64,000 bases of DNA, from the sequence record OR896834.1, one strand, 5' to 3'. How positions within the stretch are numbered: position 1 is the stretch's first letter; the number at the start of each line of letters is the position of its first letter. The DNA is from Escherichia phage Baret. The notes beneath the pieces are model-generated. The model did no database searches, had not been told where the DNA came from, and was given only the letters and a program-made list of their open reading frames with translations. The position numbers were made by a program, and so were the translations under genes. Positions 28,236 to 41,720 of this stretch are shown here, piece after piece.

Positions 28236-28514
28236 ATGAGAATTTATAACTCAAATTCATTAGGATTTAAACCGTTGAGAAAACGTGCACAATCACCTCG
28301 TCAAATAAGAAAGGCTAATATTGGTGAGCCAGAAACACGTCTTCCACCTCCTCCGGAACAACGTTTAGTTTATCTGGATGAAGAATTAGCTGAACGCGAA
28401 AGAAAAGCTCAAGAAGAGATTGAGCGTAAGAAAATGTGTACTGCTCCAGCATATAATAAAGGAGCGTATCAATATGTTTCCGATGCAGAACAAGCCAAGA
28501 TGGTTGGTAGATAA
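28236..28514 (+). CDS. hypothetical protein (92 aa)
   Basis: Track ORF, GAGGAGG RBS. Confidence 0.5.
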   Translation: MRIYNSNSLGFKPLRKRAQSPRQIRKANIGEPETRLPPPPEQRLVYLDEELAERERKAQEEIERKKMCTAPAYNKGAYQYVSDAEQAKMVGR

Positions 28515-28531
28515 TTTTTAAAAAATTCATT

Positions 28532-28560
28532 TGCTAAACGCTTCAAATTCTCGTATAATA
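28532..28560 (+). promoter_or_regulatory. sigma70 promoter (TTGCTA-17-TATAAT)
   Basis: aaaaaattcatttgctaaacgcttcaaattctcgtataat. Confidence 0.7.
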
Positions 28561-28597
28561 TACTTCATAAATTGATAAACAAAAAGGAAAATAAATA

Positions 28598-29176: not shown

Positions 29177-29392
29177 ATGTTCTCTAAGAAACCACGTTCC
29201 GTTACTGAAATCGTTGCTTCCTTTACCACTATCACTGATGAGCTTCAAGCTCGTATTGAGGCTGATCAAAAAATTGCGGCGGATATTCAGAAACAGCAGG
29301 AAGAACTCGCTTTAAAGTTGGCTGAAACCAACAAGAGTGAAAAATCTGCCCAAACTATTATGGAAAATATCCTTAAACTGCTGGGCAAGTGA
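29177..29392 (+). CDS. hypothetical protein (71 aa)
   Basis: Track ORF. Confidence 0.45.
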   Translation: MFSKKPRSVTEIVASFTTITDELQARIEADQKIAADIQKQQEELALKLAETNKSEKSAQTIMENILKLLGK

Positions 29393-29401
29393 TTTAAATC
29401 A

Positions 29402-29424
29402 GGGGGCGAAAGCCCCTCTTATTT
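29402..29424 (+). terminator. Rho-independent terminator-like hairpin
   Basis: GGGGC-gaaa-GCCCC followed by TCTTATTT. Confidence 0.5.
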
Positions 29425-29433
29425 GGAGAAACT

Positions 29434-29670
29434 ATGCGTAATTTTGTAGCAAAGAATGATTTTAACCGTGCTAGCACTCATAAGTCCGCTAGAGATTATA
29501 CACGACTTTCTAGTCATGAGGTAATGGACACCTGTTATGAAGAGCTGGAAGGTAGCTGGAATGAATGGCCCGACTTCTCTATGGAAGAGAACTGGGATGT
29601 CAGTGAGGATATGCTTCCTGGCTTTAAAGACCCCAAGAAGTGGGAGTCTATTAAAGAGACAGCTCTTTAA
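29434..29670 (+). CDS. hypothetical protein (78 aa)
   Basis: Track ORF. Confidence 0.45.
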   Translation: MRNFVAKNDFNRASTHKSARDYTRLSSHEVMDTCYEELEGSWNEWPDFSMEENWDVSEDMLPGFKDPKKWESIKETAL

Positions 29671-29698
29671 TAGTTTTCTACACAGTAAAGGATAAGTT

Positions 29699-30400
29699 AT
29701 GAAAGTAAAACCATTTGGTATGCTAGATATTGAATCTCTAGGAACTCCAGGAGATTGTGGTACTACTCATATCGTAATGCCTTCTTTCGCTTTTGTGGCT
29801 ATGCATGGGGTTGATAAAGACCCTGATCTAGTATTTGTTACTTTGGATGTGCAGGATCAGCTTAATTCTGGTGCCAAAGTTACAGCATCTACTCTAGCAT
29901 TCTGGATGGATCAAGCTAAAAATAGCCCCTCTGCTATCCACATTATGGAAGCTATGAAGGAACGTAATACAAAACTGATTGCCTTCCAAAATGGTAAACA
30001 TCATTGCACTAATAAATTAGGCTCAAACTATGCTGCCTTCTCTATGGCTCAAAATATTATGGAGTTGGCTCTAGGCGAAAATGCTTTGTATTATGGCAAT
30101 GGCCCAGAGTTTGATATGACTATCTACTCTGCAAACACGTTCCATGCTGGAACCAATGAAGAGGTAGTTCCATGGAAATTCTGGAATTTGGGTAATGTTC
30201 GATCTCTTCGTAATCTCTGGATGCAAGCTGGATACAGTTATAAGGCTCTAGAGACCGAAGGTATTAGCTGGGCAATAGCTAAAATGGAGAAGATGGACAC
30301 CATTCGTTATGGGATCTATCCGGTTAAGCACGACCCAGCATTCGATGCCCTAGTTGAGAGTTATTGTGTTGCAGCTATGATCGAAAAAATGAAAATTTGA
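29699..30400 (+). CDS. DEDDh-type 3'-5' exonuclease (DnaQ/RNase T-like)
   Basis: Exo I FGMLDIESLG; Exo III H-x4-D in YPVKHDPAFDAL. Confidence 0.55.
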   Translation: MKVKPFGMLDIESLGTPGDCGTTHIVMPSFAFVAMHGVDKDPDLVFVTLDVQDQLNSGAKVTASTLAFWMDQAKNSPSAIHIMEAMKERNTKLIAFQNGKHHCTNKLGSNYAAFSMAQNIMELALGENALYYGNGPEFDMTIYSANTFHAGTNEEVVPWKFWNLGNVRSLRNLWMQAGYSYKALETEGISWAIAKMEKMDTIRYGIYPVKHDPAFDALVESYCVAAMIEKMKI

Positions 30401-30401
30401 T

Positions 30402-30430
30402 TTGCTTCCGGCTCCAAAATTCTGTATAAT
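30402..30430 (+). promoter_or_regulatory. sigma70 promoter (TTGCTT-17-TATAAT)
   Basis: ttgcttccggctccaaaattctgtataat, within the 3' end of the upstream CDS. Confidence 0.65.
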
Positions 30431-30470
30431 ATATTCATAAATTTGAGAAAACAATAAAAGGAAAACAAAT

Positions 30471-30653
30471 ATGCCAGTATCTAAAAATGTTCGTAAAAAT
30501 GGTAAGAAAGCTACTCGTAATCTGGGTATCCGTCGTATGGCTGAACGTCAATCAGGTATCCAGAAAATCTTTGATCTGCTAAATCGTGCTAATCCTAAAA
30601 TTGATAACAGTAATGATACTGTTCTGCGCACTCTGCTGGCAATTGGTCTGTAA
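30471..30653 (+). CDS. small basic protein (60 aa)
   Basis: Track ORF. Confidence 0.45.
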   Translation: MPVSKNVRKNGKKATRNLGIRRMAERQSGIQKIFDLLNRANPKIDNSNDTVLRTLLAIGL

Positions 30654-30706
30654 TAGACCAAATTTAAACAAATTCAAATCTCAAACTTCATATAAGGAAG
30701 CAAATA

Positions 30707-31345
30707 ATGACTACTCGTATCTCTAAAACTCGCGCTCTAGCAACTATCAAATCTCTGGAAGCTAAAATCCGTAAAGCTACTGAACAACAGCTTCTGATCG
30801 CTGTTGGTGAAGGTAAGGATAAAAATAAGGTTGTAGTTGGCGCTGCAATCGAAGTAGATGATTTATCTGAGCGTATTAAGACAGATTTCCAGTCTCTGCT
30901 GGATATGATGTCTCAGCGTGATCGTATCAAAGCTGCTCTGATTAAGAGCAATGCGGAAACAGTAGTTGAGATTGGCTCTCGTAAGATGACTGTTGCGGAA
31001 GCAATTGAAGCTAAGCGTTCTATGGAGCTTAAAGCTCAACTGCTGGCTAACATGCGTAAGCAGTTCCATGCCGCTACGGTTAAATTTAATACGCAGAAAG
31101 CACAGTTTGATGCTAAATATGAGCGTTTGCAGGATAGCATGGCTACCCGCGATAAGAAAACTTCCGAAGATGAAGTTAAAATGCAGCTCAACCTGCTGGA
31201 ACTCAAGAATACTCCATTCTTGATTGATCCGCTGGAACTGGAGAAGCTGATTAAGCAGCATGACGAGGAATACCAGGACTTTGCAACAAATGTTGACTTT
31301 GTTCTGTCCGAGTCTAACGCCTCTACCTTCATTGAAGTAGAGTAA
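30707..31345 (+). CDS. hypothetical coiled-coil protein (212 aa)
   Basis: Track ORF, AAGGAAG RBS. Confidence 0.55.
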   Translation: MTTRISKTRALATIKSLEAKIRKATEQQLLIAVGEGKDKNKVVVGAAIEVDDLSERIKTDFQSLLDMMSQRDRIKAALIKSNAETVVEIGSRKMTVAEAIEAKRSMELKAQLLANMRKQFHAATVKFNTQKAQFDAKYERLQDSMATRDKKTSEDEVKMQLNLLELKNTPFLIDPLELEKLIKQHDEEYQDFATNVDFVLSESNASTFIEVE

Positions 31346-31728
31346 TAATTTAAAAGCTAGTAAATCGGTAGACGAAAGCCCAAGCATCTTACCTCGCAGC
31401 AGCGGTTGAAATACGAGGTTAAATAAGACCGCTGACCATACTATAAAGTATAATCTATTGGAGATTATGTTTATTACACCAGCCTTTTAAGCTGACACGT
31501 AAGAACAAAGCGTCGTTGATATTACCGACACAACTTCAAAGATCAACATTTAAGTATGAAAGCTGAAAAGTTTAAAGAACTCAAACTTCTAAACTTCTAA
31601 AGCTAAAAGATGCAAAGTATTCGTTGATGATTCAAACCCTAGATCAAAGGTACATGGCTCATAAGATATGGCCTGTGGCGCCTCTAGGCTGTTTATCGGT
31701 TTACTAGTTTCACAATTTAAAAATGTAT

Positions 31729-31757
31729 TTGCTAATCCACTAAATTATATGTATAAT
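31729..31757 (+). promoter_or_regulatory. sigma70 promoter (TTGCTA-17-TATAAT)
   Basis: ttgctaatccactaaattatatgtataat. Confidence 0.65.
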
Positions 31758-31787
31758 ATATTTTTAAATTGATGAAACGAGGCTATT

Positions 31788-32105
31788 ATGACTTTTCATA
31801 TTTTGATTGATGATGTGCGTAATCTTCATGGAATGGACATTATCATTCGAACCCCAGAAGCCGCTGTAGAGTTTCTGAATAAAACTGATACCACAGGCCA
31901 TTTCGTTTATATGGATAATGACTTGGCTGTAGATGGTATGGAAGGTTATCAAATTCTTCGTTTACTCTTAGAATTTGGGCAGAGACCAAAGAAAGTGGTA
32001 CTAGTAACCTCGAACCCAGTAGCTAAGCAAAATATGCGTAATGATTTGCTTGACTTAGGGTATAAAGAAAATCCCAATCGTGTTGAATATGATTGGCAGG
32101 AGTAA
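31788..32105 (+). CDS. hypothetical protein, receiver-domain-like (105 aa)
   Basis: Track ORF; HILIDD...YMDNDLAVDGMEGYQIL loosely resembles a CheY-like acidic pocket. Confidence 0.4.
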   Translation: MTFHILIDDVRNLHGMDIIIRTPEAAVEFLNKTDTTGHFVYMDNDLAVDGMEGYQILRLLLEFGQRPKKVVLVTSNPVAKQNMRNDLLDLGYKENPNRVEYDWQE

Positions 32106-32110
32106 AAAGA

Positions 32111-32560
32111 ATGAAGGCAGCTTTGCTTTTAGTAGCTGCCCTTACCTTCAGCTTTAGTAGTCAGGCATCGCACGATGCAAAAGAAATAGATTGCATTGCT
32201 AAAAATATCTATTTCGAAAGTCGTGGTGAGGGCATAAAGGGAATGACGGCGATTGCACATGTTACTAAAAACCGTGTAAACTCCGGTAAATTCCCAGATT
32301 CCTACTGTAAAGTAGTATATCAGTCTAACCAGTTCTCTTGGGTATCTAAGAGACCAAAAGTTGATAAAACTGATGAGGCTTGGCAAACCGCCAAGAATTT
32401 AGCTAGAGTGATATACTACGTTGATTTACCACAAGATCCTACACATGGAGCACTATACTTCCATAGTGGTAAAGATAAACCTTACTGGACAAAGAAGTTT
32501 AAGAAAACAACTAAGATTAAGGGACATACGTTTTATAAACCTGTTGTCACTAAAACTTAA
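32111..32560 (+). CDS. secreted cell-wall hydrolase, SleB/CwlJ (Hydrolase_2) family
   Basis: Signal peptide MKAALLLVAALTFSFSSQA; core IYFESRGEG...AIAHVTKNRV...FP...VVYQSNQFSW. Confidence 0.65.
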   Translation: MKAALLLVAALTFSFSSQASHDAKEIDCIAKNIYFESRGEGIKGMTAIAHVTKNRVNSGKFPDSYCKVVYQSNQFSWVSKRPKVDKTDEAWQTAKNLARVIYYVDLPQDPTHGALYFHSGKDKPYWTKKFKKTTKIKGHTFYKPVVTKT

Positions 32561-32568
32561 AAATTTAC

Positions 32569-32597
32569 TTGCTTAAATACTTAAATTTCCGTATAAT
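32569..32597 (+). promoter_or_regulatory. sigma70 promoter (TTGCTT-17-TATAAT)
   Basis: ttgcttaaatacttaaatttccgtataat. Confidence 0.65.
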
Positions 32598-32628
32598 ACT
32601 TCCATAAATTAATGAGAGGAAGCGAAAT

Positions 32629-32799
32629 ATGAAATCAGTTGTAATTATTGGTGTTAACACTCGCGGTATTCGTACTACGAAAACTGTTAAAACTTCTAAC
32701 GTTGCTGAGATCACTACGAACCCTAAAAAGTTTGATTTCGCCAAAGTCTCAGCAGTTATGACAGAACGATCTTTTAACCAAGCGTTAGGAATGAAATAA
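32629..32799 (+). CDS. hypothetical micro-protein (56 aa), not in ORF track
   Basis: ATG 8 nt after GAGAGGA RBS and downstream of promoter; stop overlaps next ATG (ATGAAATAATGG). Confidence 0.45.
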   Translation: MKSVVIIGVNTRGIRTTKTVKTSNVAEITTNPKKFDFAKVSAVMTERSFNQALGMK

Positions 32800-33242
32800 T
32801 GGAAGAGAATATTTTAGATGTTTTGCGTAGAGCTTTGCAGGATTCTAAGTTTAATGGTTCTGATAAAGAAGTCGCTAAAAGCTATCAGACCATAATCGGG
32901 GATCTTCAGCGTATTAATAAAGATTTCATCACTTCTGAACAATTTGTGTCTTATCTCAAAGCTCAACTAAAAAGCATTAACCAGATGAAAGCTAAACTTC
33001 ATGGTCAAGATCTTGATAGTTATAGCTTGCAGTCCGCTCAGTATGAATACATTCTAAATAAGTGGTTGCAGGAGTATCTGCCTCCTCAGTTATCTGATAC
33101 TGAGATTCGTAAATACTTTGCAGAATTAGTTAAGCTAAACCCTGGAATTACAAAAGGTATGCTAATGAAAGCGATTAAGGAAGAATTTCCTGGGCGTTAT
33201 GATGGTGGTACTGCTGCTCAGATTGCTGGCGAATTTAATTAA
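32799..33242 (+). CDS. hypothetical protein (147 aa)
   Basis: Track ORF. Confidence 0.5.
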   Translation: MEENILDVLRRALQDSKFNGSDKEVAKSYQTIIGDLQRINKDFITSEQFVSYLKAQLKSINQMKAKLHGQDLDSYSLQSAQYEYILNKWLQEYLPPQLSDTEIRKYFAELVKLNPGITKGMLMKAIKEEFPGRYDGGTAAQIAGEFN

Positions 33243-33250
33243 AAATTTAT

Positions 33251-33279
33251 TTGCTAAATGCTTATAAATTCTGTATAAT
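33251..33279 (+). promoter_or_regulatory. sigma70 promoter (TTGCTA-17-TATAAT) driving an ORF-free RNA region
   Basis: aaaaatttatttgctaaatgcttataaattctgtataat; no ORF downstream for ~800 nt. Confidence 0.65.
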
Positions 33280-33299
33280 ATATTCATAAATTAGAGAAC

Positions 33300-34090
33300 A
33301 GCGAGCCGATTACGCTGAACTTGTCTTAATGTAAGATGCGTCAAGCACTAAGATTCGTTGAATAGAGTCGGTGGGTTAGTTGTAAAACTAGTACACAGGG
33401 GGCGGCAATCCCGGTTAGTGGCTAGAACGTGTAAAATGAGGCGTCTGAAACCTCTCCCCTAAACTCTTCTCTAATTTATAAATAGTGGGGTGTGGAAATC
33501 ACTTATGTAGTAACACTGCCGTCCTAGTATAATTGGTATTATCAAGCCGTAACTGGTGGAAGATGTAGGTTCGAATCCTACGGTCGGTAAGAACTGGATA
33601 ACTGATGCTTTTAACGTAAAAGCTTCCGAGGTTAGTTGCGCACTGCCTAAACCACGCGGTAGTTGGTTCCAGACTAACCAACCAGTCTGCTGAATAGTTT
33701 TATTACGATTTAACTATGCCCAGGCTAAAGAAGAACTTTAGAAGGTATTCTAGGGTAGTGAAGTTCTTTCTCCATATCGGAGTAGTTTTTCAAGCTATCC
33801 ACAAAGTGGGAAATGCTGACATGAGAGATGTCACTAATGGTGCACAATAGCACAGGTAATTCGCGATAACTCCTGTTGAGTAGCAGCAAAAGGTGGGAAG
33901 TCATGACCCCAAGCCTAACCGAGTCCTCAATATACCGCAGGACATAACCACTAAGTCACCCTGACTTAAACTGGAAAATAATAGACGTTACCGTATTTTG
34001 TCTTGAAATACTTAATGAGTGAGACTTATGACTCTCCCGGTATCGTCTGTATTTTTAAGAGTTTTTACGAGAGTTCTTAAAAATACTTAA
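33300..34090 (+). other. ORF-free structured region (candidate noncoding RNAs) upstream of tRNA-Arg
   Basis: No ORF of 60 aa or more; stacked hairpins (GTTGGTT/AACCAAC, AAGAACTT/AAGTTCTT, TTTTTAAGA/TCTTAAAAA); DnaA-box-like CTATCCACA. Confidence 0.3.
33518..33589 (+). pseudogene. tRNA-like element (degenerate)
   Basis: Canonical T-arm GTAGG-TTCGAAT-CCTAC and 6/7 acceptor pairing, but no convincing anticodon arm. Confidence 0.25.
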
Positions 34091-34091
34091 A

Positions 34092-34166
34092 CGGGGTGTA
34101 GTCTAAGGGATAGGCAGGAGTCTTCTAAATTCCTTTATGCAGGTTCGAATCCTGTCACCTCGGCCA
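34092..34166 (+). tRNA. tRNA-Arg (anticodon UCU), CCA encoded
   Basis: Acceptor CGGGGTG/CACCTCG, D-stem GTCT/AGGC, anticodon loop CTTCTAA, T-loop TTCGAAT, 3' GCCA. Confidence 0.8.
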
Positions 34167-34200
34167 ATTTTATTAACTGTAACTAAAACAAAGGAAATAT

Positions 34201-35148
34201 ATGTTTAATACTAAAAATATGAAAGAACTAACTTCTGAGCAGAAAGTAATTCGTACTATTAAACGTTGGGGGATTGGTGCTGTAGTTGGTTTAGCAGGTT
34301 TAATCCTAGCTTTTAATTCATATACTATTGTTTCTGATGGTACGGTTAAAACCCAAACATTTCTTGGTAAAGTAGATCCTAACCCAGTATTACCTGGTTT
34401 CCATCCTGTAAACCCATTTGCATCTTTCGATACTTTTAGTACAAAAGATATTGCTGTAAAATTAGATAAACTTCAGGTTCCTAGCCAGGATAAGTTTAAA
34501 TCCACTGTTGACCTGACTGTTATGTTGCAGTTTGATGGTTCTAAGGCACCGATTAACCGTATTAATGCAGGTACTCAGGATCAAGCATTAGACAAATATG
34601 TAACTGAAAAATTACTGTCTACTATTCGTGAGTTTGGTAAGTCTGTACCTAAAGCACAAGATTTATTTGATGCTAAAATTCAGGCTCAATTGCAAACTGC
34701 AATTCAACAGGAAGTTGAAGAGTATGCACGCCCATATGGCTACACAGTTAAGCAGGTGTTTCTTCAGGATATTACTTTGCCACCAGTAATCATGGAACAG
34801 GTACAGAATACCAAAGTTCGTGAAGAGCAAGTTAATGCTGCAAAAGCTGAACTGGCTCGCGTTGAACAAGAAGCTCAGCAGAAAGTTAAACAAGCAGAAG
34901 CAGACCGTGAAGCTCGTAATAACCAAGCTATTGCTAACGAACGCGACGCAGATGCTAAACTGTATGCAGCTAAGAAAGAAGCTGAAGCTAACGCCGCGCT
35001 GCAACGTACCATTACTCCTGAGATGATTCGCTGGAAGCAACTAGAAGTTGAAATGATTCGTGCTCAGAAGTATCAAGGTGGTGTACCGCAGACTGTGGTT
35101 GGCACTGGTTACGATGGCCAGATGATTATGGATATGCGTAATAAGTAA
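34201..35148 (+). CDS. SPFH/band-7 domain membrane protein (HflC/prohibitin-like)
   Basis: N-terminal TM helix IGAVVGLAGLILAF; SPFH-like core; C-terminal Ala/Glu/Gln-rich coiled coil. Confidence 0.55.
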   Translation: MFNTKNMKELTSEQKVIRTIKRWGIGAVVGLAGLILAFNSYTIVSDGTVKTQTFLGKVDPNPVLPGFHPVNPFASFDTFSTKDIAVKLDKLQVPSQDKFKSTVDLTVMLQFDGSKAPINRINAGTQDQALDKYVTEKLLSTIREFGKSVPKAQDLFDAKIQAQLQTAIQQEVEEYARPYGYTVKQVFLQDITLPPVIMEQVQNTKVREEQVNAAKAELARVEQEAQQKVKQAEADREARNNQAIANERDADAKLYAAKKEAEANAALQRTITPEMIRWKQLEVEMIRAQKYQGGVPQTVVGTGYDGQMIMDMRNK

Positions 35149-35171
35149 TATCCACGCGTAATATTCGAAGT

Positions 35172-35206
35172 AAGCCCTGTGTTTCCTGGAGAGCGCAGGG
35201 CTTTTC
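35172..35206 (+). terminator. Rho-independent terminator
   Basis: AGCCCTG...CAGGGCT hairpin followed by TTTTCTG. Confidence 0.6.
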
Positions 35207-35245
35207 TGTATAATGTATTTATACAACTAACTAGGGGATCAAATA

Positions 35246-35764
35246 ATGACTGTTGATGAACTAACAGAACATCTCTTATCTAGAGGGTTTGATACAGATA
35301 AATATCACTGCTGGCTAAGCCCAGAAGGATGGCTAACAGTCCCATTGTATGACTTCTCTGGGATGTTGAGAGGCTATCAGACTTATAATCCTTCTGCTCC
35401 AAAAGGTCATGGTAAATGCCCCTTTGAAGCTAGATATTTTACTTATTCTACTACACAGTGTGTATGGGGACTAGAAACTCTCAATGGAGACGAAAAAGTA
35501 GTATTGATTGCTGAATCTGTATTTAAGGCAGTTGCGTTACATAACGCTGGTTATCCAGCCCTGGCAATGTTGGGTTCTTCCCCCGGAAAAGCGTTGTTAA
35601 AGCAATTGAAATTACTACCTTTTAAATTGGTAGCTGTTGGGGATAATGATCCTGCTGGTGAAAAATTTGCTAGACAATTAAATGGATTTGTTTCTCCTGT
35701 AGATGTGGATGAGATGTCTACCGAAAACTTGAAAAATTTTCTTGCTATGAAGCTAAATTTCTAA
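35246..35764 (+). CDS. TOPRIM-domain protein (172 aa)
   Basis: VVLIAESVFKAV (E) ... LVAVGDNDPAGEKFA (DxD) fits TOPRIM; promoter TTGCTA embedded in its 3' end. Confidence 0.5.
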   Translation: MTVDELTEHLLSRGFDTDKYHCWLSPEGWLTVPLYDFSGMLRGYQTYNPSAPKGHGKCPFEARYFTYSTTQCVWGLETLNGDEKVVLIAESVFKAVALHNAGYPALAMLGSSPGKALLKQLKLLPFKLVAVGDNDPAGEKFARQLNGFVSPVDVDEMSTENLKNFLAMKLNF

Positions 35765-35770
35765 TATAAT
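35742..35770 (+). promoter_or_regulatory. sigma70 promoter (TTGCTA-17-TATAAT) for tRNA transcription unit
   Basis: ttgctatgaagctaaatttctaatataat. Confidence 0.6.
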
Positions 35771-35784
35771 ATATTTATAAATTC

Positions 35785-35873
35785 GGAAGAATAGCATAAC
35801 GGTATTGCAGCAGATTGCTAATCTGTCGGTTTGAAATATAGCCTTGTGGGTTCGATTCCCACTTCTTCCGCCA
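35785..35873 (+). tRNA. tRNA-Ser (anticodon GCU), type II, CCA encoded
   Basis: Acceptor GGAAGAA/TTCTTCC, anticodon arm GCAGA-TTGCTAA-TCTGT, long variable arm, T-arm GTGGG-TTCGATT-CCCAC. Confidence 0.8.
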
Positions 35874-35879
35874 AATTCT

Positions 35880-35957
35880 GGTTCTCAAGCTCATATGGTA
35901 TGAGCACCCGGCTCATAACCGGAAGGTACGTAGGTTCGAATCCTCGGGGAGCCACCA
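35880..35957 (+). tRNA. tRNA with CAU anticodon (Met/Ile2-type), CCA encoded
   Basis: Acceptor GGTTCTC/GGGAGCC, D-arm GCTC...GAGC, anticodon loop CTCATAA; T-stem has mismatches. Confidence 0.5.
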
Positions 35958-35977
35958 ACTTAATTAGGGGATTACAA

Positions 35978-36166
35978 GTGGAATTATACATAGTTTATGT
36001 TGTGTTTATTCAAGATAGAGAATACCCTGATGAATATAAAAAAGGATATAGGTTAGCCAGAGCTACTTCTGAAGCCCAAGCTATGGATAAAGTGGCAGAT
36101 TATATGCTTACAGTAGAAAACGTACACTACATCGACTACCTTGAAGCCTCAAAAGTAATTGACTAA
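35978..36166 (+). CDS. hypothetical protein (62 aa, GTG start)
   Basis: Track ORF trimmed to exclude tRNAs; GTG after AGGGGA. Confidence 0.35.
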   Translation: MELYIVYVVFIQDREYPDEYKKGYRLARATSEAQAMDKVADYMLTVENVHYIDYLEASKVID

Positions 36167-36173
36167 ACTACAC

Positions 36174-36250
36174 GGGGGTGTAATCGAATTGGCATAGGTA
36201 CTGGACTTAAAATTCAGGTTTTGTGGGTTCGAATCCCACCACCCCTACCA
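36174..36250 (+). tRNA. tRNA with UAA anticodon (Leu by anticodon), type I length, CCA encoded
   Basis: Acceptor GGGGGTG/CACCCCT, anticodon arm CTGGA-CTTAAAA-TTCAG, T-arm GTGGG-TTCGAAT-CCCAC; D region GAATTGGCATA lacks a clear stem. Confidence 0.55.
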
Positions 36251-36265
36251 AATTAAGGAAATAAG

Positions 36266-36433
36266 ATGTATAGACACCCACCTCCGCCAACACGTCGTTC
36301 TAGAGAAGTTATCCTCATGGAATTGACTAAAAACTTCAAGGCAACTCTTGAGGATAGAGATTTAGGCACGGATGAAGACATTGATTTTATTTGTAGACTA
36401 TTAAAGATGAAACTGGAGAAACAACATGGCTAA
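36266..36433 (+). CDS. hypothetical micro-protein (55 aa), not in ORF track
   Basis: ATG after AAGGAA RBS; overlaps next ORF start. Confidence 0.35.
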   Translation: MYRHPPPPTRRSREVILMELTKNFKATLEDRDLGTDEDIDFICRLLKMKLEKQHG

Positions 36434-36632
36434 TCCTGAAATTACCATGCAACGATTCATGGCTAAAGGCATGATAGCTGAGGCAGGCATTGAACAAGAA
36501 GTAAAAAGTTATTACGAACAGATTAAGGGTATTGTAGACTCGGCTAAAAACACCGGAGAAAAAGAACATGGTGCGGCAATTATGGCTATAACTCTTATTA
36601 GTCTAGACTTGGCCGAAGAATCTGGAGTTTAG
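36426..36632 (+). CDS. hypothetical protein (68 aa)
   Basis: Track ORF, GGAG RBS. Confidence 0.45.
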   Translation: MANPEITMQRFMAKGMIAEAGIEQEVKSYYEQIKGIVDSAKNTGEKEHGAAIMAITLISLDLAEESGV

Positions 36633-36662
36633 CTCCTCCAAACAGAATTTTTAAAAATGTAC

Positions 36663-36692
36663 TTGCCTTTTGCCTTAAATTTCTGATATAAT
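36663..36692 (+). promoter_or_regulatory. sigma70 promoter (TTGCCT-18-TATAAT)
   Basis: acttgccttttgccttaaatttctgatataat. Confidence 0.6.
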
Positions 36693-36722
36693 AATTATAT
36701 AAATTGATGGAGGAGTTAACGA

Positions 36723-36998
36723 ATGCAAAATCGTGTTGTAGCAACTGGTATTGAAAGTGCAATCTGTAAATCCTGGGAAGGCTGGGAAGGTGAGATTGAA
36801 TGGCTTTATTTCTATGATGTAGAACTTCTACCGGAAGTTAAAGCTAAATGTATTGAAGCTGGCATGGCTCCAGATGCAAAAGCTGATATTGATATTTTAA
36901 TGTCTGAACTTAAAGGTCGTGTAGTTACCGTTAGTAATGAGGGCGAAGAAGTTTTCGAACTTCCATTTTCCTTAACTGTCACTCCTAAGTTCGACTAA
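36723..36998 (+). CDS. hypothetical protein (91 aa)
   Basis: Track ORF, GGAGGAG RBS. Confidence 0.5.
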   Translation: MQNRVVATGIESAICKSWEGWEGEIEWLYFYDVELLPEVKAKCIEAGMAPDAKADIDILMSELKGRVVTVSNEGEEVFELPFSLTVTPKFD

Positions 36999-37006
36999 CT
37001 AATACA

Positions 37007-37045
37007 GCACTGAGCAAGTTCTTTAAAATTTGACTTGCTCAGTGC
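37007..37045. repeat. 12-bp perfect inverted repeat enclosing the -35 of the next promoter
   Basis: GCACTGAGCAAG (37007-18) and CTTGCTCAGTGC (37034-45). Confidence 0.6.
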
Positions 37046-37063
37046 CTTAAAACTTGATATAAT
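37035..37063 (+). promoter_or_regulatory. sigma70 promoter (TTGCTC-17-TATAAT) for tRNA unit
   Basis: ttgctcagtgccttaaaacttgatataat. Confidence 0.6.
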
Positions 37064-37079
37064 AGTTATCTAATTCGGA

Positions 37080-37129
37080 AACATATTTAAAAGTGTTTAA
37101 ACTAGTATTTGAATACTTTTAAATATGTT
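37080..37129. repeat. 15-bp perfect inverted repeat (leader hairpin) abutting tRNA-Tyr 5' end
   Basis: AACATATTTAAAAGT (37080-94) and ACTTTTAAATATGTT (37115-29), 20-nt spacer containing GTTTAAAC. Confidence 0.7.
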
Positions 37130-37217
37130 GGATTAGTATCGTAGAGGTAGCGAAGCAGACTGTAAATCTGCCGACTCGGAAGGGTCTCGGGTGGTTCGAC
37201 TCCATCATCCAACACCA
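37127..37217 (+). tRNA. tRNA-Tyr (anticodon GUA), type II, CCA encoded
   Basis: Acceptor GTTGGAT/ATCCAAC, anticodon arm GCAGA-CTGTAAA-TCTGC, long variable arm, T-arm GGTGG-TTCGACT-CCATC. Confidence 0.8.
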
Positions 37218-37224
37218 AATTTAA

Positions 37225-37301
37225 GTCCTGTTAGACAAACTGGTAAAGTCACTACCCTTTCAAGGTAGGGTTTGCGGGTTCGATCCCCGCACAGGACGCC
37301 A
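37225..37301 (+). tRNA. tRNA-Glu (anticodon UUC), CCA encoded
   Basis: Acceptor GTCCTGT/ACAGGAC, anticodon arm CTACC-CTTTCAA-GGTAG, T-arm GCGGG-TTCGATC-CCCGC. Confidence 0.8.
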
Positions 37302-37310
37302 ATTAATAAT

Positions 37311-37381
37311 TGGGGTACGCATAGGTTGCAAATGGGCCTCCAAAACCCATGAAAAGGTTTCGAATACCTTTACCCCTGCCA
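37311..37381 (+). tRNA. tRNA, probable Trp (anticodon CCA), CCA encoded
   Basis: T-arm AAGGT-TTCGAAT-ACCTT, acceptor TGGGGTA/TACCCCT (1:72 mismatch), anticodon loop CTCCAAA with 4-bp stem. Confidence 0.45.
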
Positions 37382-37387
37382 AAATTT

Positions 37388-37462
37388 GCACCTTTAGCTG
37401 AGATGGATTAGCGCTTGCCTGAAGAGCTTGAGAGGTTCGTTCGATACGAACAGGGTGCACCA
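37388..37462 (+). tRNA. tRNA, possibly Phe (anticodon GAA), CCA encoded
   Basis: Acceptor GCACCTT/AGGGTGC, D-arm GCT...AGC, T-arm GTTCG-TTCGATA-CGAAC; loop CTGAAGA but anticodon stem has U-U mismatches. Confidence 0.45.
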
Positions 37463-37478
37463 AATTGAAGGAGATGCT

Positions 37479-37749
37479 GATGCATCCTGAAAACTTCTTT
37501 ATTTACTGCGCGGATAAGTTGCTGAAACGTAGAATTAACAAAGTCTATCATTATCGTGTTAGTCAACAGCCTTATGTATACGCTTTTGACGGTGATCACA
37601 TTTCATTAGAACAATTATCTTGTGATTACATGATATTGAAGAACTTTGACGAGACGAAGATCTCAAGCGTTCACAATCGACAGAATCCATTAACGTGGAA
37701 ATATAAGAAAAAGAAAGGCATCAAATTCTTAAAAAATGTAGTTGCTTAG
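37479..37749 (+). CDS. hypothetical protein (90 aa)
   Basis: ATG 6 nt after AAGGAG; track start adjusted. Confidence 0.45.
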
Positions 37750-37770
37750 TTTCCAAAAGTTCTGTATAAT
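37742..37770 (+). promoter_or_regulatory. sigma70 promoter (TTGCTT-17-TATAAT)
   Basis: ttgcttagtttccaaaagttctgtataat. Confidence 0.6.
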
Positions 37771-37799
37771 AAATACATAAATTGAACTGGAGAAGCAAC

Positions 37800-38018
37800 A
37801 TGACAGAACAAGAATTGAATGAACGTAAGCTAGTAATGCTTCGCTTACTAAATATTTTCTCTGGTATGGACGGTGGTGGTGATTTCTTAAGACTTAAGGT
37901 ATTTACAGAAACTGCCGAAGGTGATGCAATCTCTAGAGTTATTAGGAACATGGGAAGCCTGCTAGATGTGGCTGGAGTAGCTACTCAATACACCTTAGAT
38001 AATCCTACTGGAGAATAA
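37800..38018 (+). CDS. hypothetical protein (72 aa)
   Basis: ATG after GGAGAAG RBS. Confidence 0.45.
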   Translation: MTEQELNERKLVMLRLLNIFSGMDGGGDFLRLKVFTETAEGDAISRVIRNMGSLLDVAGVATQYTLDNPTGE

Positions 38019-38210
38019 ATGAGAAGATTAGTTAGATTTAAGTGTTGTAGTTCTGAACATATTTTCACACATCTTCGTGAATTTAAAATGTGTGATTGTG
38101 GTAAATCAGGCTATGACTCTGGAAATGGGTTCTACACCCGTACTCTAGGGAACTTCAATGATTTAGAATTTGAAGATCTCGAAAAACAAGATAAACCGAC
38201 CGTTGGCTGA
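38019..38210 (+). CDS. hypothetical Cys-rich micro-protein (63 aa)
   Basis: C-C...C-x-C pattern; start overlaps upstream stop. Confidence 0.4.
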   Translation: MRRLVRFKCCSSEHIFTHLREFKMCDCGKSGYDSGNGFYTRTLGNFNDLEFEDLEKQDKPTVG

Positions 38211-38272
38211 ATGGCTTAGGCGAAGGATTGCAAATCCTTTTTATGTGAGTTCAAATCTCATGCGGTCGTCCA
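38197..38272 (+). tRNA. tRNA-Cys (anticodon GCA), CCA encoded
   Basis: Acceptor CGACCGT/GCGGTCG, anticodon arm AAGGA-TTGCAAA-TCCTT, T-arm GTGAG-TTCAAAT-CTCAT. Confidence 0.75.
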
Positions 38273-38293
38273 AATTACTAAAGGAAAGAAGTA

Positions 38294-38812
38294 GTGCATA
38301 CAAAAGTTTTTGATAGTTTGGTAAAGAAAGGCGTTGTTACTAACGAGCCCTTCTATATAACCGCAGAACTAATCCAGAGATTTATGGAAGAATATATAAA
38401 TCTTTCAGGAACCAATGGTAATACCAAAAAGAATACAAATACTATGTATTCGAGAAAACTTGCTGCACTTTCCTTTATAAAGTTTAAGCAGGAAAATAAA
38501 CTTCCTATTTCTGAAGGTTTTGTATACTGTATTAGTAATCCTGCATGGAAAAATCAGTATAAAATAGGTATGAGTCAAAATCCAAAAGAGAGATTAGCTC
38601 AATATCAGACTTATTCCCCTTATAGGGATTATAAGTTAGAGCATTGGTCTTTTTGGTTTGACAAACGAAAAGGTGAAAAACTAATTCACCAGTATTTCAA
38701 AGATTTAAAAGAACATGAGTGGTTTAGTATAAATTCTAGGGATCTTAGTAAATATCTAGAACGTATTAACTCTAGTTCTGACTTATATGGTTCCTTAGCT
38801 CTAATTGGTTAG
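38294..38812 (+). CDS. T5orf172/GIY-YIG-like domain protein (172 aa, GTG start)
   Basis: GFVYCISNPAWKNQYKIGMSQNPKERLAQYQT matches the T5orf172 (MUG113) signature; 3' end overlaps tRNA-Asn by ~24 nt. Confidence 0.55.
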   Translation: MHTKVFDSLVKKGVVTNEPFYITAELIQRFMEEYINLSGTNGNTKKNTNTMYSRKLAALSFIKFKQENKLPISEGFVYCISNPAWKNQYKIGMSQNPKERLAQYQTYSPYRDYKLEHWSFWFDKRKGEKLIHQYFKDLKEHEWFSINSRDLSKYLERINSSSDLYGSLALIG

Positions 38813-38866
38813 AGCGGCATCTTGTTAAGTTGAGGGTTGCTGGTTCGAATCCAACAGGAACCGCCA
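38789..38866 (+). tRNA. tRNA-Asn (anticodon GUU), CCA encoded
   Basis: Acceptor GGTTCCT/AGGAACC, D-arm GCTC...GAGC, anticodon loop TTGTTAA (stem with mismatches), T-loop TTCGAAT. Confidence 0.6.
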
Positions 38867-38968
38867 AATTCTGTGTAGAGTTAAGTAAACCGGTAGCCAA
38901 CCAGCTATCATTGCTGACATCGAATTCAGCCATAGATACCATTTTCGTTAATAACTGAGGAAACAAGC

Positions 38969-39154
38969 ATGTCCAAGAATGTAATTGCGCAGCTAGAAGT
39001 TCATCGTGATAGCACTATCAACAATATTGAAGTTGAGAAGAAATACATAGAAGAACTTAAACATGATATACTGGTAAGTCTCAACCGTCTTAATGTACGA
39101 AAAGAGTTTCTTAAAGAACTTAATGCAGCTATTGAAAAACTCAAAGCTGAGTAA
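38969..39154 (+). CDS. hypothetical coiled-coil micro-protein (61 aa)
   Basis: Track ORF. Confidence 0.4.
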   Translation: MSKNVIAQLEVHRDSTINNIEVEKKYIEELKHDILVSLNRLNVRKEFLKELNAAIEKLKAE

Positions 39155-39163
39155 ATGAATTAT

Positions 39164-39240
39164 GCGACCGGGGCTGGCTTGGTAATGGTACTCCCCTGTC
39201 ACGGGAGAGAATGTGGGTTCAAATCCCATCGGTCGCGCCA
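39164..39240 (+). tRNA. tRNA-Asp (anticodon GUC), CCA encoded
   Basis: Acceptor GCGACCG/CGGTCGC, anticodon arm CTCCC-CTGTCAC-GGGAG, T-arm GTGGG-TTCAAAT-CCCAT. Confidence 0.8.
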
Positions 39241-39257
39241 AATAAGGTAGGTTAGCT

Positions 39258-39416
39258 ATGGAACGTAGGGAGTTTACTCCAGAAGAGATAGAGCAGATAA
39301 AAGAATCTGCTATGAAAAATGCTAGAATATCTCTGTCACTGGAAGGTATCATTATTAGTGATGTAAACTTTGAAAAAATCAAAGCCATAGCTGATGAACT
39401 GGAAAAAGTAATTTAA
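39258..39416 (+). CDS. VbhA/FicA-antitoxin-like micro-protein (52 aa), not in ORF track
   Basis: AAGGTAGG RBS; sequence NARISLSLEG contains the (S/T)xxxE(G/N) inhibitory motif of Fic antitoxins. Confidence 0.45.
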   Translation: MERREFTPEEIEQIKESAMKNARISLSLEGIIISDVNFEKIKAIADELEKVI

Positions 39417-39417
39417 T

Positions 39418-39493
39418 ACATCCATAGCTCAATGGTTAGAGCTACCGCCTCTTAAGCGGAGGGTTCTAGGTTCAAGTCCTAGTGGGTGTACCA
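39418..39493 (+). tRNA. tRNA-Lys (anticodon CUU), CCA encoded
   Basis: Acceptor ACATCCA/TGGGTGT, D-arm GCTC...GAGC, anticodon loop CTCTTAA, T-arm CTAGG-TTCAAGT-CCTAG. Confidence 0.75.
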
Positions 39494-39519
39494 AATTAAA
39501 CTAGCACGAGAAATATGCT

Positions 39520-39867
39520 ATGATTAATGCTAAAGAAGAATTGTTACTTGCCCTAAAGAATACTAATTCTGAAGTTAAGTGTATTAAGATAGAATTCGGT
39601 TATTATGGGGATAAAGAAGTTTGGGTATTACCCGTAGGTTATACAGAAAAAGATATTGAAGATTTTCTAGATAATCTAGACTTTAAATATGATTCTGGTT
39701 TCGGCGGACAATTGCTTTATGGTAACGTATGGTTTACCGATGGAACTTGGTTAGAACGTGGTGAATATGATGGTTCTGAATGGTGGGAATATAAGACTAC
39801 ACCAGCAATCCCAGAAGAATGCCGAACAATTAATGGTGAAGTAGATCGTACTTTACTATTAAATTAA
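39520..39867 (+). CDS. hypothetical protein (115 aa)
   Basis: Track ORF. Confidence 0.5.
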   Translation: MINAKEELLLALKNTNSEVKCIKIEFGYYGDKEVWVLPVGYTEKDIEDFLDNLDFKYDSGFGGQLLYGNVWFTDGTWLERGEYDGSEWWEYKTTPAIPEECRTINGEVDRTLLLN

Positions 39868-39869
39868 CA

Positions 39870-40250
39870 AAATTTCAGTGCAGAACACGGAGCTAGCAAT
39901 TCGGAAGTGCTGACTCATGATAAGCTGCCTATGTACTTGCGAAGCGGTCGTGTCCAAGACTCGGACTCTTGCACTGAAAACAATCAAACATTCTAGCGTG
40001 GTTGATGGGGAAACCAGCTTGGCGAGGGCAGAAGCTCGTTCGATTCGAGTGAAAGAATGGTTCTCGTAAGTCCGCACAAGTGATAACAGGTTCGAGTCCT
40101 GTCTAGAATGACACTATAAAGTTTACTTATTATGTAGGTTCCGATAGACCGGCGGGTCTATTCTGGCATTTAAGAGAGGTCTCGCAAACTTCTTTGTCAG
40201 CCGTGGGGTTGGTAGCCTCCAGGTGGCCTACACAATAAGTAAATTTATTA
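39870..40250 (+). other. ORF-free structured region with tRNA-like modules
   Basis: T-arm-like hairpins CTCG-TTCGATT-CGAG and ACAGG-TTCGAGT-CCTGT; 7-nt pairing ATTCTAG (39990-96) with CTAGAAT (40103-09) spanning ~120 nt. Confidence 0.3.
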
Positions 40251-40259
40251 AAAATTCAT

Positions 40260-40288
40260 TTGCTATTCTGCTTTATTATCTGTATAAT
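40260..40288 (+). promoter_or_regulatory. sigma70 promoter (TTGCTA-17-TATAAT)
   Basis: aaaaattcatttgctattctgctttattatctgtataat. Confidence 0.65.
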
Positions 40289-40320
40289 ATATTTTATAAA
40301 GTGAAGAGAAGGAAAGCAAA

Positions 40321-40479
40321 ATGAAACACAAGATAGCTCAAGTTTTTATGGCATTATGGTGTATACCAATAGCTATAACAGCATTTAATCTAGATACTTT
40401 TACTATAGAAGAAAAATGTATCGGATTAGTTAGCGGTTTTAGTATGCTGGGCTTATCTTTGCTGTGGTTAAAGAAATAA
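40321..40479 (+). CDS. small hydrophobic membrane protein (52 aa), not in ORF track
   Basis: ATG after GAGAAGGAAAG RBS; two predicted TM segments. Confidence 0.45.
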   Translation: MKHKIAQVFMALWCIPIAITAFNLDTFTIEEKCIGLVSGFSMLGLSLLWLKK

Positions 40480-40483
40480 TATT

Positions 40484-40561
40484 CTCCGTGTAGCTCAGTT
40501 TGGCCAGAGCGTTTCGTTTGGGGCGATAGGGTCGGGGGTTCAAATCCTCCCACGGAGACCA
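40484..40561 (+). tRNA. tRNA-Pro (anticodon UGG), CCA encoded
   Basis: Acceptor CTCCGTG/CACGGAG, D-arm GCTC-AGTTTGGCCA-GAGC, anticodon loop TTTGGGG, T-loop TTCAAAT. Confidence 0.7.
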
Positions 40562-40567
40562 AACAAT

Positions 40568-40645
40568 TGCGGGTTAGATCTCTGGTAGAGATCGCTAGTC
40601 TCATAAGCTAGAAAGAGGTAGGTTCGATTCCTGCACCCGCTTCCA
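40568..40645 (+). tRNA. tRNA-Met (anticodon CAU; could be initiator or Ile2), CCA encoded
   Basis: Acceptor TGCGGGT/ACCCGCT (1:72 mismatch), D-arm GATC...GATC, anticodon arm CTAGT-CTCATAA-GCTAG. Confidence 0.7.
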
Positions 40646-40665
40646 CTTTAATAGAGGATTTCGAA

Positions 40666-40833
40666 ATGAAAGTATTTCGATTAGTAGTAAGTGACAAACG
40701 TTTAGGTAAGAATACCTCAAAATCCTTACTTGCTCATTATGGAAAAGATGAGAAAGAAGTAATGGCGGAGTTTGGGATTAATCACCCTTACTTGAAAGTT
40801 CACTCTATTAAAGAAGTATATAATGGTTACTAA
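40666..40833 (+). CDS. hypothetical micro-protein (55 aa), not in ORF track
   Basis: ATG 8 nt after AGAGGA RBS. Confidence 0.4.
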   Translation: MKVFRLVVSDKRLGKNTSKSLLAHYGKDEKEVMAEFGINHPYLKVHSIKEVYNGY

Positions 40834-40834
40834 T

Positions 40835-40913
40835 AGATCGCTAGCTCAATAGGTTTAGTAGCATCCGACTTTTAATCGGAAGGTTCTGGGTTCGAGTCCC
40901 AGGCGATCTACCA
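40835..40913 (+). tRNA. tRNA-Lys (anticodon UUU), CCA encoded
   Basis: Acceptor AGATCGC/GCGATCT, anticodon arm TCCGA-CTTTTAA-TCGGA, T-arm CTGGG-TTCGAGT-CCCAG. Confidence 0.8.
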
Positions 40914-40931
40914 ATTTCAAGAAAAACGCAG

Positions 40932-40960
40932 TTGCTTGATGCTTAATTTCTTGTTATAAT
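40932..40960 (+). promoter_or_regulatory. sigma70 promoter (TTGCTT-17-TATAAT) for RNA-only unit
   Basis: ttgcttgatgcttaatttcttgttataat. Confidence 0.65.
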
Positions 40961-40972
40961 ATTTATATAAAT

Positions 40973-40994
40973 TGATGAGGATTTCTCCTCATCA
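40973..40994. repeat. perfect 9-bp hairpin at transcript 5' end
   Basis: TGATGAGGA-tttc-TCCTCATCA; the 5' arm is the conserved leader box that elsewhere provides the RBS. Confidence 0.6.
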
Positions 40995-41198
40995 TAGTTC
41001 ACTAAGGTATTAGCTCGACCTAGGACTGGCTGCCAAAAAGCACGATCCCTACGATTCGGGAGGAGTTCTAGATTAGTCCACTAGATTCAGCGGCAACTGA
41101 ATAGTGTATTGGGTTTGCGAGATGACGCGGTTCCTTCCGCTCGAAGCGAAGGTGCTGTAGTTACGCCGAGCTAATAGCCTTAGTAAACTAAAGAATTT

Positions 41199-41277: not shown

Positions 41278-41282
41278 AATAC

Positions 41283-41715: not shown

Positions 41716-41720
41716 TACTT

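Follow-up and report, generated by a model that had tools for sequence, protein, structure and literature searches.

RNAX of T5-like phages: a probable large, multi-domain non-coding RNA at the head of a tRNA island

The DNA studied here is a stretch of 64,000 nucleotides (nt) from Escherichia phage Baret (OR896834.1), called the window below and numbered on the strand as deposited. It contains an island of 22 transfer RNA (tRNA) genes, found by ARAGORN at 34092-43971. The head of this island raises a question. In the interval 33251-34091 there is a T5-type early promoter, followed by some 806 nt without a conserved open reading frame (ORF), up to the first tRNA gene, tRNA-Arg(UCU). What is this sequence for? 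An earlier note, made from the sequence alone, offered small RNAs, leaders for tRNA processing or decayed tRNA genes. The interval is in all probability one large structured RNA of about 806 nt and several domains, non-coding, and a homologue of what is labelled RNAX in phage BF23.

The helices of this RNA are kept by compensatory substitutions across Tequinta-, Epseptima-, Sugarland-, Hongcheon-, Priuna- and Novosibvirus, and over three test alignments such changes affect at least 29 pairs. As judged from these alignments, selection on a promoter-proximal, non-coding RNA structure of the plus strand is established. The earlier note was thus right in kind, in that it saw a promoter-driven non-coding RNA that is co-transcribed with the tRNA island. 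Its small RNAs find no support; there is one large multi-domain RNA, with helices that covary across genera.

Promoter, reading frames and existing labels

The promoter had been placed correctly at 33251-33279. It is a sigma-70 early promoter on the plus strand, with TTGCTA as -35 element (33251-33256), a spacer of 17 and TATAAT as -10 element (33274-33279), which is 10 out of 12 matches. An A/T-rich tract (33233-33250) lies upstream of the -35 element. The promoter aligns at 93% with 'promoter P16-17' of BF23, and we take it to resemble the T5 promoter PN25. Transcription presumably starts at around A33286, and the annotated start of RNAX in BF23 is equivalent to 33293.

The same promoter belongs to a family of at least 12 similar sequences of some 55 nt in the window. 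These early-promoter copies, which represent the T5-type strong promoter family, occur on both strands within 3765-56099, for example at 28513-28573, 30388-30449, 32557-32611, 40242-40310 and 56041-56099.

Between the promoter and 35172 no plus-strand terminator-like site was found. The transcription unit runs on through tRNA-Arg(UCU) (34092-34166, plus strand) and the Band_7 ORF (34201-35148) to a terminator-like site at 35172-35203, which matches 'ter1' of BF23. The 5' end of tRNA-Arg, the expected RNase P site, sets the 3' end of the large RNA.

Within the window, 33243-34200 is the third-longest interval that lacks an ORF of at least 80 amino acids (aa). From the stop of the upstream ORF (33242) to tRNA-Arg (34092), no plus-strand ORF is longer than 45 aa. 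The earlier note had stated that nothing here reaches 60 aa. This holds for the plus strand and fails marginally on the minus strand, where a 60-aa ORF with a TTG start lies at 33499-33681, one that is broken in relatives. A second minus-strand ORF, of 59 aa, lies at 33725-33904 and is likewise broken in relatives.

Substitutions relative to an Epseptimavirus homologue are spread evenly over the codon positions, at 84, 92 and 81 (p = 0.69), versus 10, 3 and 33 for one flanking ORF and 27, 10 and 107 for the other. In addition, nine candidate small ORFs are each frameshifted, interrupted or missing in BF23, T5 or Epseptimaviruses. The idea of small ORFs was rejected on these two grounds, no codon periodicity and breakage of every candidate in relatives. 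By this measure the interval is not coding.

In the BF23 record, NC_042564, the orthologous 784 nt are annotated by the depositor as misc_RNA rnaX, 'RNAX, stable RNA with unknown functions'. This feature spans promoter P16-17 to the first base of tRNA-Arg, and over 849 nt the locus is 94.8% identical to that of the window. Locus, orthologous sequence, promoter and the 3' boundary at tRNA-Arg are the same. The record offers a one-line label, and the RNA of the window differs from it in a variable hairpin at 33319-33358.

Other records say less. The T5 record AY587007 annotates only a pseudo-tRNA at the locus, and other GenBank records have nothing, 'tRNA-OTHER' or short hypothetical proteins of 30-60 aa. 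Full-text literature searches on RNAX, BF23 stable RNAs, T5 transcriptomes and large phage RNAs returned no paper that discusses RNAX; a 2023 BF23 genome paper cites the tRNA-region record, not RNAX. An Infernal/Rfam scan of the interval, as the earlier note had suggested, matched only tRNA, at a single module (33518-33589). In the window and five other lineages, Rfam 15 at E <= 10 likewise matched no family besides tRNA. RNAX is probably a large ornate RNA family of the Demerecviridae, so far a label in one record and absent from Rfam. With a covariance model, the spurious 'hypothetical proteins' and 'tRNA-OTHER' features in many GenBank records could be corrected.

Helices kept by compensatory substitutions

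Among the alignment cells of the proposed helices 215 hold G·U and 12 hold A·C, as expected if the pairing is selected in plus-strand RNA and not in DNA or antisense RNA; this count is partly circular, given that G·U was allowed when the helices were chosen.

No part is conserved more widely than the central domain (D2, 33486-33655). A long-range helix of GUGG (33486-33489) with CCAC (33652-33655) closes it; this helix becomes ACGG/CCGU in Pectobacterium phage DU_PP_V and AUGG(G)/(C)CCAU in PR1, PSTCR5, Stubb and YZU-L1. The strands that make up the junction of the domain, 33484-33517 and 33590-33606, are conserved. Inside the domain, a helix called PJ (CACUUAU 33500-33506 with AUAACUG 33598-33604) brackets a tRNA-like element. 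Its outer C-G pair is G-C in 5 sequences, and at two other pairs U-A has become C-G. Next to it stands hairpin H1 (33607-33623), GCUUUUA-acg-UAAAAGC, found elsewhere as GCUUAU/AUAAGC, GCUUC/GAAGC, GGUUC/GAACC and GCGUA/UACGC. In a 25-sequence alignment of this central module, 15 of 33 pairs are changed on both sides. Shuffled alignments gave 6.4 ± 1.4 (none of 500 reached 15) and slid partners 3-6.

The tRNA-like element at 33518-33589 corresponds to the 'top half' of a tRNA and has kept its acceptor stem, its D and T arms, and the elbow (G-G / T loop). The earlier note had noticed this module, and it is real, with 35.5 bits against the Rfam tRNA model RF00005 at a gathering score of 29. Homologues from four genera score 29.3-39.6 bits, also above that threshold. 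The model skips the anticodon arm (a local end of 18 nt), and ARAGORN calls no tRNA at 33518-33589. This arm is degenerate and varies in length, with 3-4 base pairs and a 6-nt loop where a canonical arm has 5 base pairs and a 7-nt loop; it is expanded in Kpn13-P1 and replaced in EK80. The acceptor stem carries a U5·U68 mismatch in 20 of the 25 sequences, repaired in the other 5. Pair 1:72 is G·U or G·A, and no CCA is encoded after the element.

The stems of this element covary. The T stem occurs as GUAGG/CCUAC, GCAGG/CCUGC and GUGGG/CCCAC. In the acceptor stem, DU_PP_V has C4-G69 for G4-C69 and U7-A66 for C7-G66, and homologue L010 has U6-A67 for C6-G67. Such compensatory changes preserve the acceptor stem, T arm and elbow, and going by these the element is not decaying; decayed tRNA genes, one of the options in the earlier note, are not supported. 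In some Epseptimaviruses (L026, L044) and in Providencia phage PR1 a short hairpin stands in place of the element. The same replacement appears to have happened in Proteus phage Stubb, going by a covariance-model match of just 111 nt. Because PR1, and apparently Stubb, replace the element, the universal core of the RNA is the central junction and not the tRNA mimic.

The 5' domain (D1, 33281-33484) is closed by a helix of 33281-33301 with 33464-33484, two arms of 21 nt that are 90% complementary. It contains hairpin CAGCG (33299-33303) / CGCUG (33313-33317), for which the stem variant CAGCA/UGCUG exists. The loop of this hairpin, GCCGAUU (33305-33311), pairs with AGUCGGU (33366-33372), 55 nt downstream, so that 33299-33372 forms a pseudoknot. 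Compensatory variants of this pairing are GCAGACU/AAUCUGU in DU_PP_V and Stubb, and GCAUACU/AAUAUGU in PR1. The variable hairpin in which the window and BF23 differ lies between the two pseudoknot strands. A further hairpin, GAGG-cgucugaaa-CCUC (33438-33454), appears in other lineages as GUGG/CCAC, CGGGA/UCCCG and CUCAG/CUGAG. For D1 with its pseudoknot, 9 of 30 pairs are changed on both sides, versus 3.1 ± 1.2 in shuffles (0 of 500 get there) and 0-3 in slid controls.

A variable linker (33656-33801) follows D2 and is made up of lineage-specific hairpin modules. One candidate here, an H-type pseudoknot at 33663-33690 (GUUGGUU/AACCAAC plus CAGAC/GUCUG), was dropped, having loops that are too short and a second stem that rutana does not keep.

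The 3' domain (D3, 33802-33967) has a closing helix of GUGG (33806-33809) and CCAC (33948-33951). Within it are hairpins at 33817-33833, 33838-33885 and 33923-33943, and as a fourth an apical-loop stem with internal loop (33891-33916), which presents the loop 33898-33907 (AAGUCAUGAC). Directly after the closed part comes hairpin AAGUCA-ccc-UGACUU (AAGUCAcccUGACUU, 33953-33967). The structure was derived with RNAalifold from 20 Tequinta- and Epseptimavirus sequences, and 99.7% of cells are paired, a fraction that is biased by the structure having been scored on the alignment it came from. Double changes are found at 5 pairs. Shuffles give 3.4 ± 0.8, with 5 or more in 21 of 500, and slid controls give 0-1.

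The palindromic loop of D3, GAGUCAUGACC, is invariant and contains UCAUGA. The motif (G/A)AGUCAUGACC, which includes UCAUGA, is invariant in all lineages that have D3, on supporting stems of differing sequence. Single-sequence minimum-energy folds of the window, EscoHU1, SB13 and Klebsiella phage Kpn13-P1 give the same 3' layout despite their different stems. AGUCAUGA is an apical loop closed by G-C pairs in 4 of 5 such folds; DU_PP_V folds differently. Because MAFFT misaligned the variable modules in the Klebsiella and Pectobacterium phages, support for D3 across lineages comes from these single-sequence folds and from reading the sequences. T5 (at about 3070-3150 of its stretch) and a metagenomic relative (L109, 7214-7477) have an insertion of some 83 nt in D3, which duplicates the AGUCACCUUGAC...AAACUGGAA segment.

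Past D3 lies the conserved motif AAACUGGAA(A/G)AUA (33968-33982), apparently single-stranded. A pairing of AAACUGGAA (33968-76) with UUCCAG (33667-72) was considered and dropped as inconsistent across lineages. Next comes a sub-terminal three-way junction (33983-34048), closed by AGACGUUACCG (33983-33993) and CGGUAUCGUCU (34038-34048). The sequence of this closing helix differs in each of four lineages and always pairs, as read directly from the sequences.

The RNA ends in a terminal hairpin of 17 base pairs (34049-34086), 5 nt before the 5' end of tRNA-Arg. Its arms, 34049-34060 and 34075-34086, are the longest perfect inverted arms of the interval at 12 nt, and extend to 17 pairs once G·U is allowed. 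The inverted repeats listed in the earlier note thus exist, and calling them long and perfect was an overstatement. The hairpin is about 92% identical even in DU_PP_V, a phage that is otherwise nearly unalignable to the window by blastn. It is followed by no U tract, and would serve to cap and protect the 3' end.

Distribution and rival explanations

The region was found by blastn in 537 phage records. The stretch 33200-34200 is 100% identical in Escherichia phage vB_Eco_mar004NP2 and several Salmonella phages; records at 99%, such as Phage NBEco001, are Demerecviridae of the genus Tequintavirus, and the window is a Tequintavirus as well. Gene order is kept more widely: a cell-wall hydrolase, a YqeY-like protein, an ORF-poor part of about 0.7-1.3 kilobases (kb) and tRNA-Arg, the latter not everywhere, and with variations such as extra ORFs. 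This arrangement holds in Epseptimavirus, Sugarlandvirus (Klebsiella), Hongcheonvirus (Pectobacterium DU_PP_V), Priunavirus (Providencia PR1) and Novosibvirus (Proteus Stubb). Sugarlandviruses have extra hairpin modules, and lack an adjacent tRNA-Arg and, mostly, the YqeY-like gene. They keep the RNA and its terminal hairpin, after which an ORF takes the place of tRNA-Arg.

In the window the YqeY-like protein is encoded at 32799-33242. It scores 25.4 bits against PF09424 (cut-off 27) and matches PHROG 1460 'tRNA amidotransferase' with E = 4e-47. In the distant genera of DU_PP_V and PR1 it is just 31-40% identical. Junction strands and several loops of the RNA are invariant across genera with such a diverged flanking protein.

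A covariance model built from the central module was used to test the limits of the family. Full-length matches came from Providencia PR1 and PSTCR5, Proteus Stubb, a DU_PP_V-like contig, Citrobacter YZU-L1 and metagenomic contigs, of which those of some 107-115 kb are T5-like in size. Exact motifs, scanned for in viral, metagenome and genome collections, also matched unrelated contigs; the model rejected L063, L070, L078, L090 and all 7 bacterial genome contigs as chance. No match was found in 5,426 complete E. coli genomes. The D3 motifs were not found in PR1 or Stubb, which do keep the 5' hairpin and the central junction. The comparison with T5 and its relatives that the earlier note had proposed thus finds the RNA conserved, mosaic and with covarying helices.

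T5 and about eight further Tequintaviruses lack the D1 interior (33298-33461). In PRF-SP13, rutana and misterkot an ORF stands in its place, shown for PRF-SP13 to be an HNH endonuclease. Two mobile-ORF insertion sites exist in or next to the RNA in Epseptimaviruses (L055 1244-1723 and 2310-2819, with equivalents in L052, L056 and L051). At one an HNH endonuclease sits in place of the 5' domain, and at the other a 169-aa ORF precedes tRNA-Arg. In several Epseptimaviruses this ORF, which has no Pfam or PHROG match, lies exactly between the terminal hairpin and tRNA-Arg. The gene downstream of the RNA also differs between genera.

Several observations weigh against one large ornate RNA. Folded over its whole length, the RNA has just a modest advantage in energy over shuffles (z = -1.8), and the reverse strand does about as well (z = -2.1). 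Because z is no better than -1.8, the case for structure is built on covariation and not on energy. Most aligned sequences are closely related, so the shuffle controls overstate significance, and to this comes the bias in the D3 test given above. The 5' interior, the tRNA-like element and the 3' motifs are each missing or replaced in some lineages, and therefore no domain besides the central junction is universal. At E <= 10 the Rfam models of GOLLD and ROOL, large phage RNAs to which RNAX is compared below, match neither the window nor the homologues from Epseptimaviruses and from Klebsiella, Pectobacterium, Proteus and Providencia phages. Also, the 3' half is what is universal in GOLLD, while in RNAX the central junction and 5' hairpin are the most widespread.

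Of the rival explanations, the one that survives best is a leader of the tRNA-Arg / Band_7 transcript, passive or acting in cis, which would carry signals for processing, stability or cis-regulation and have no function in trans. The co-transcription with tRNA-Arg and the Band_7 ORF, with no terminator between, fits this. So does a terminal hairpin 5 nt from the RNase P site, and the tRNA-like top half is plausible as a handle for RNase P. However, three closed covarying domains, a pseudoknot and invariant junction strands are more than processing needs. The Klebsiella Sugarlandviruses keep RNA and hairpin in front of an ORF instead of tRNA-Arg, the 169-aa ORF separates hairpin from tRNA in several Epseptimaviruses, and the downstream gene varies among genera. 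A leader for tRNA processing alone, as in the earlier note, does not account for this, and a leader of any kind seems quite improbable.

The locus could also be a graveyard, where decayed tRNA genes and the scars of homing endonucleases have piled up as neutral mosaic junk of a tRNA region prone to recombination. Module content is indeed mosaic between lineages, HNH ORFs have inserted, and the one tRNA-like element is annotated as a pseudo-tRNA in T5. However, even at E <= 10 Rfam has no other tRNA-like match in the interval. The stems of this element covary instead of decaying, the invariant junction strands and loops stand beside a protein of 31-40% identity, and the pairs with compensatory changes number at least 29. 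This makes the graveyard very improbable.

Even less probable is an element that works as DNA: a replication origin with DnaA box, cruciforms, or a site for protein binding or packaging. Both the terminal hairpin and TCATGA are palindromes of very conserved sequence, there are AT-rich palindromes, and the DnaA-box-like CTATCCACA pointed out in the earlier note is present at 33795-33803, at the end of the linker. It is a single 8-of-9 match, replaced in Epseptimaviruses. With up to 1 mismatch the window has 179 DnaA-box matches versus 167 ± 13 expected, so this one is a chance match. No change in GC skew was seen at the locus. An origin with DnaA boxes was rejected for these reasons: a lone box at chance frequency, not conserved, and no skew switch. 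The asymmetry of G·U over A·C points to plus-strand RNA, and long-range and pseudoknot pairings make no sense in duplex DNA.

Least probable of all is that the locus encodes one or more small proteins in the manner of PHANOTATE-style annotation, as the short 'hypothetical proteins' in several GenBank records and a 44-aa ATG ORF at 33716-33850 might suggest, given that substitutions lack codon periodicity, every ORF has a frameshift or a stop, or is missing, in T5, BF23 or Epseptimaviruses, the ATG ORF has no Shine-Dalgarno sequence in front of it on reading the sequence, and the minus-strand ORFs overlap the conserved tRNA-like element.

Known relatives and possible roles

GOLLD (Weinberg et al. 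2009) and ROOL both have a model in Rfam. They are encoded by phages or prophages in the neighbourhood of tRNA islands, and their function is unknown (PMC12286853). In GOLLD a linker, which sometimes carries tRNAs, joins a variable and a conserved half, the 3' half being the conserved one, and a cryo-electron microscopy structure is available (PMC12286853). ROOL is a large RNA with pseudoknots and no known protein partner (PMC5737381; PMC12286853).

RNAX resembles GOLLD in being phage-encoded, some 800 nt long, next to a tRNA island, ornate and multi-domain, partly variable and partly conserved, with tRNA or a tRNA-like element in the linker. The hosts are unlike those of GOLLD: RNAX occurs in phages of Enterobacterales. 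With ROOL it shares size class, a place near a tRNA island and a pseudoknot. It is about 200 nt longer, and no embedded tRNA-like element is reported for ROOL. There is no Rfam match beyond tRNA, and membership in GOLLD, ROOL, Y RNA, tmRNA, group I introns or small ribozymes is therefore unsupported. The group I intron and ribozyme models in Rfam were checked because of the nearby HNH ORFs, and had no matches.

Smaller RNAs of phage tRNA regions are also of interest. The T4 species 1 and species 2 RNAs are stable, of unknown function, co-transcribed with phage tRNAs and released by tRNA processing. RNAX, like these and like the small stable RNAs of T5 and BF23 (RNA I, III, IV and RNA1-3), would be of the stable kind that is co-processed with tRNA. 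The others are single-domain RNAs of 70-170 nt; RNAX, with its three closed domains and pseudoknot, is 5-10 times their size. RNA1-3 are annotated in BF23 as tRNA-like.

The window has homologues, at 95-100% identity, of other 'stable RNAs of unknown function' from BF23. These are RNA3 (38869-38941), RNA2 (39989-40112), RNAIV (40132-40234), RNA 2H (41008-41179), RNA1 (41922-42065), RNAI (42066-42172) and RNAIII (42177-42282). None of the seven matched a non-tRNA Rfam family at the thresholds used.

Acceptor/T minihelix and elbow together are the part of a tRNA that RNase P, RNase Z and the CCA-adding enzyme recognise. MALAT1 mascRNA and the tRNA-like domain of the YrlA Y RNA, like RNAX, keep these parts and have no working anticodon arm. 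RNAX differs from them in having no Y RNA match in Rfam, in that its element is swapped for a hairpin in some lineages, and in that its cleavage is only predicted.

If RNAX is one large RNA, standard E. coli RNA processing suggests how it might be made. Host RNA polymerase would transcribe it early, as the head of a transcript that runs into tRNA-Arg and the SPFH/Band_7 gene. A cut by RNase P at the 5' end of tRNA-Arg would then free RNAX, and the terminal hairpin would shield the new 3' end, giving a stable RNA. A second RNase P cut might be made at the internal tRNA-like element (AACACU|GCCG), after which the two halves could stay joined through helix PJ and the long-range GUGG/CCAC helix.

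What such an RNA does is a more tentative matter. It may work in trans as a scaffold or other structural RNA, in the manner of GOLLD/ROOL, and not as a cis leader or a source of small RNAs; this is a possibility worth entertaining and somewhat doubtful. The conserved junction core could then bind a partner, and the palindromic loop could make RNA-RNA contacts between copies. By synteny the YqeY-like protein is a candidate partner.

A bolder proposal, and a rather unlikely one, is that RNAX founds a third class of ornate phage RNAs next to GOLLD and ROOL. Through UCAUGA it would self-associate into dimers or higher forms; it would also display the tRNA top half and act early on the tRNA, translation or RNA-processing machinery of the host, or on defences that target tRNA. 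The lead for assembly into homo-oligomers is solely UCAUGA, the palindrome of the invariant apical loop. Anti-defence roles have already been linked to the tRNAs of T5. The known viable deletions of the T5 tRNA region (29191-38625) stop short of the RNAX locus, which in T5 is at about 40.7-41.5 kb.

GOLLD and ROOL have solved structures and no known function, and the organisms they come from are difficult to manipulate. In the T5 family, model phages carry an RNA comparable to them in size, setting and complexity, for which a domain map is now available, and both T5-like phages and E. coli are genetically tractable. Should the third-class proposal be true, the function of a giant phage RNA would for the first time be testable, in E. 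coli and T5.

Some further features of the window stand apart from RNAX. Relatives of the Band_7/SPFH protein behind tRNA-Arg, at 76-80% identity, occur on IMG/VR contigs of 142-180 kb (L035-L042). These larger contigs appear to be of another family, which suggests that the gene has been exchanged between phage families. In the tRNA island, 41824-41914 resembles tRNA-Sec at 38.3 bits, under the gathering score of 47, and 35880-35954 is a tRNA by Rfam (40.3 bits) that ARAGORN missed.

Near the end of the window, an ORF-poor part of about 1.8 kb (61889-63700), probably the 'large non-coding region / injection stop signal' zone of T5, is some 90% conserved among T5-like phages. It has eight copies of a 22-mer ending in TGTCGGATTTGCACA (62426-63034) and repeats of the AATGAGAATGATAATGATTCGCATTTAA type at 63060-63251 and 63573. 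A duplicated 24-mer in it (63267-63290 and 63328-63351) contains two perfect DnaA boxes TTATCCACA.

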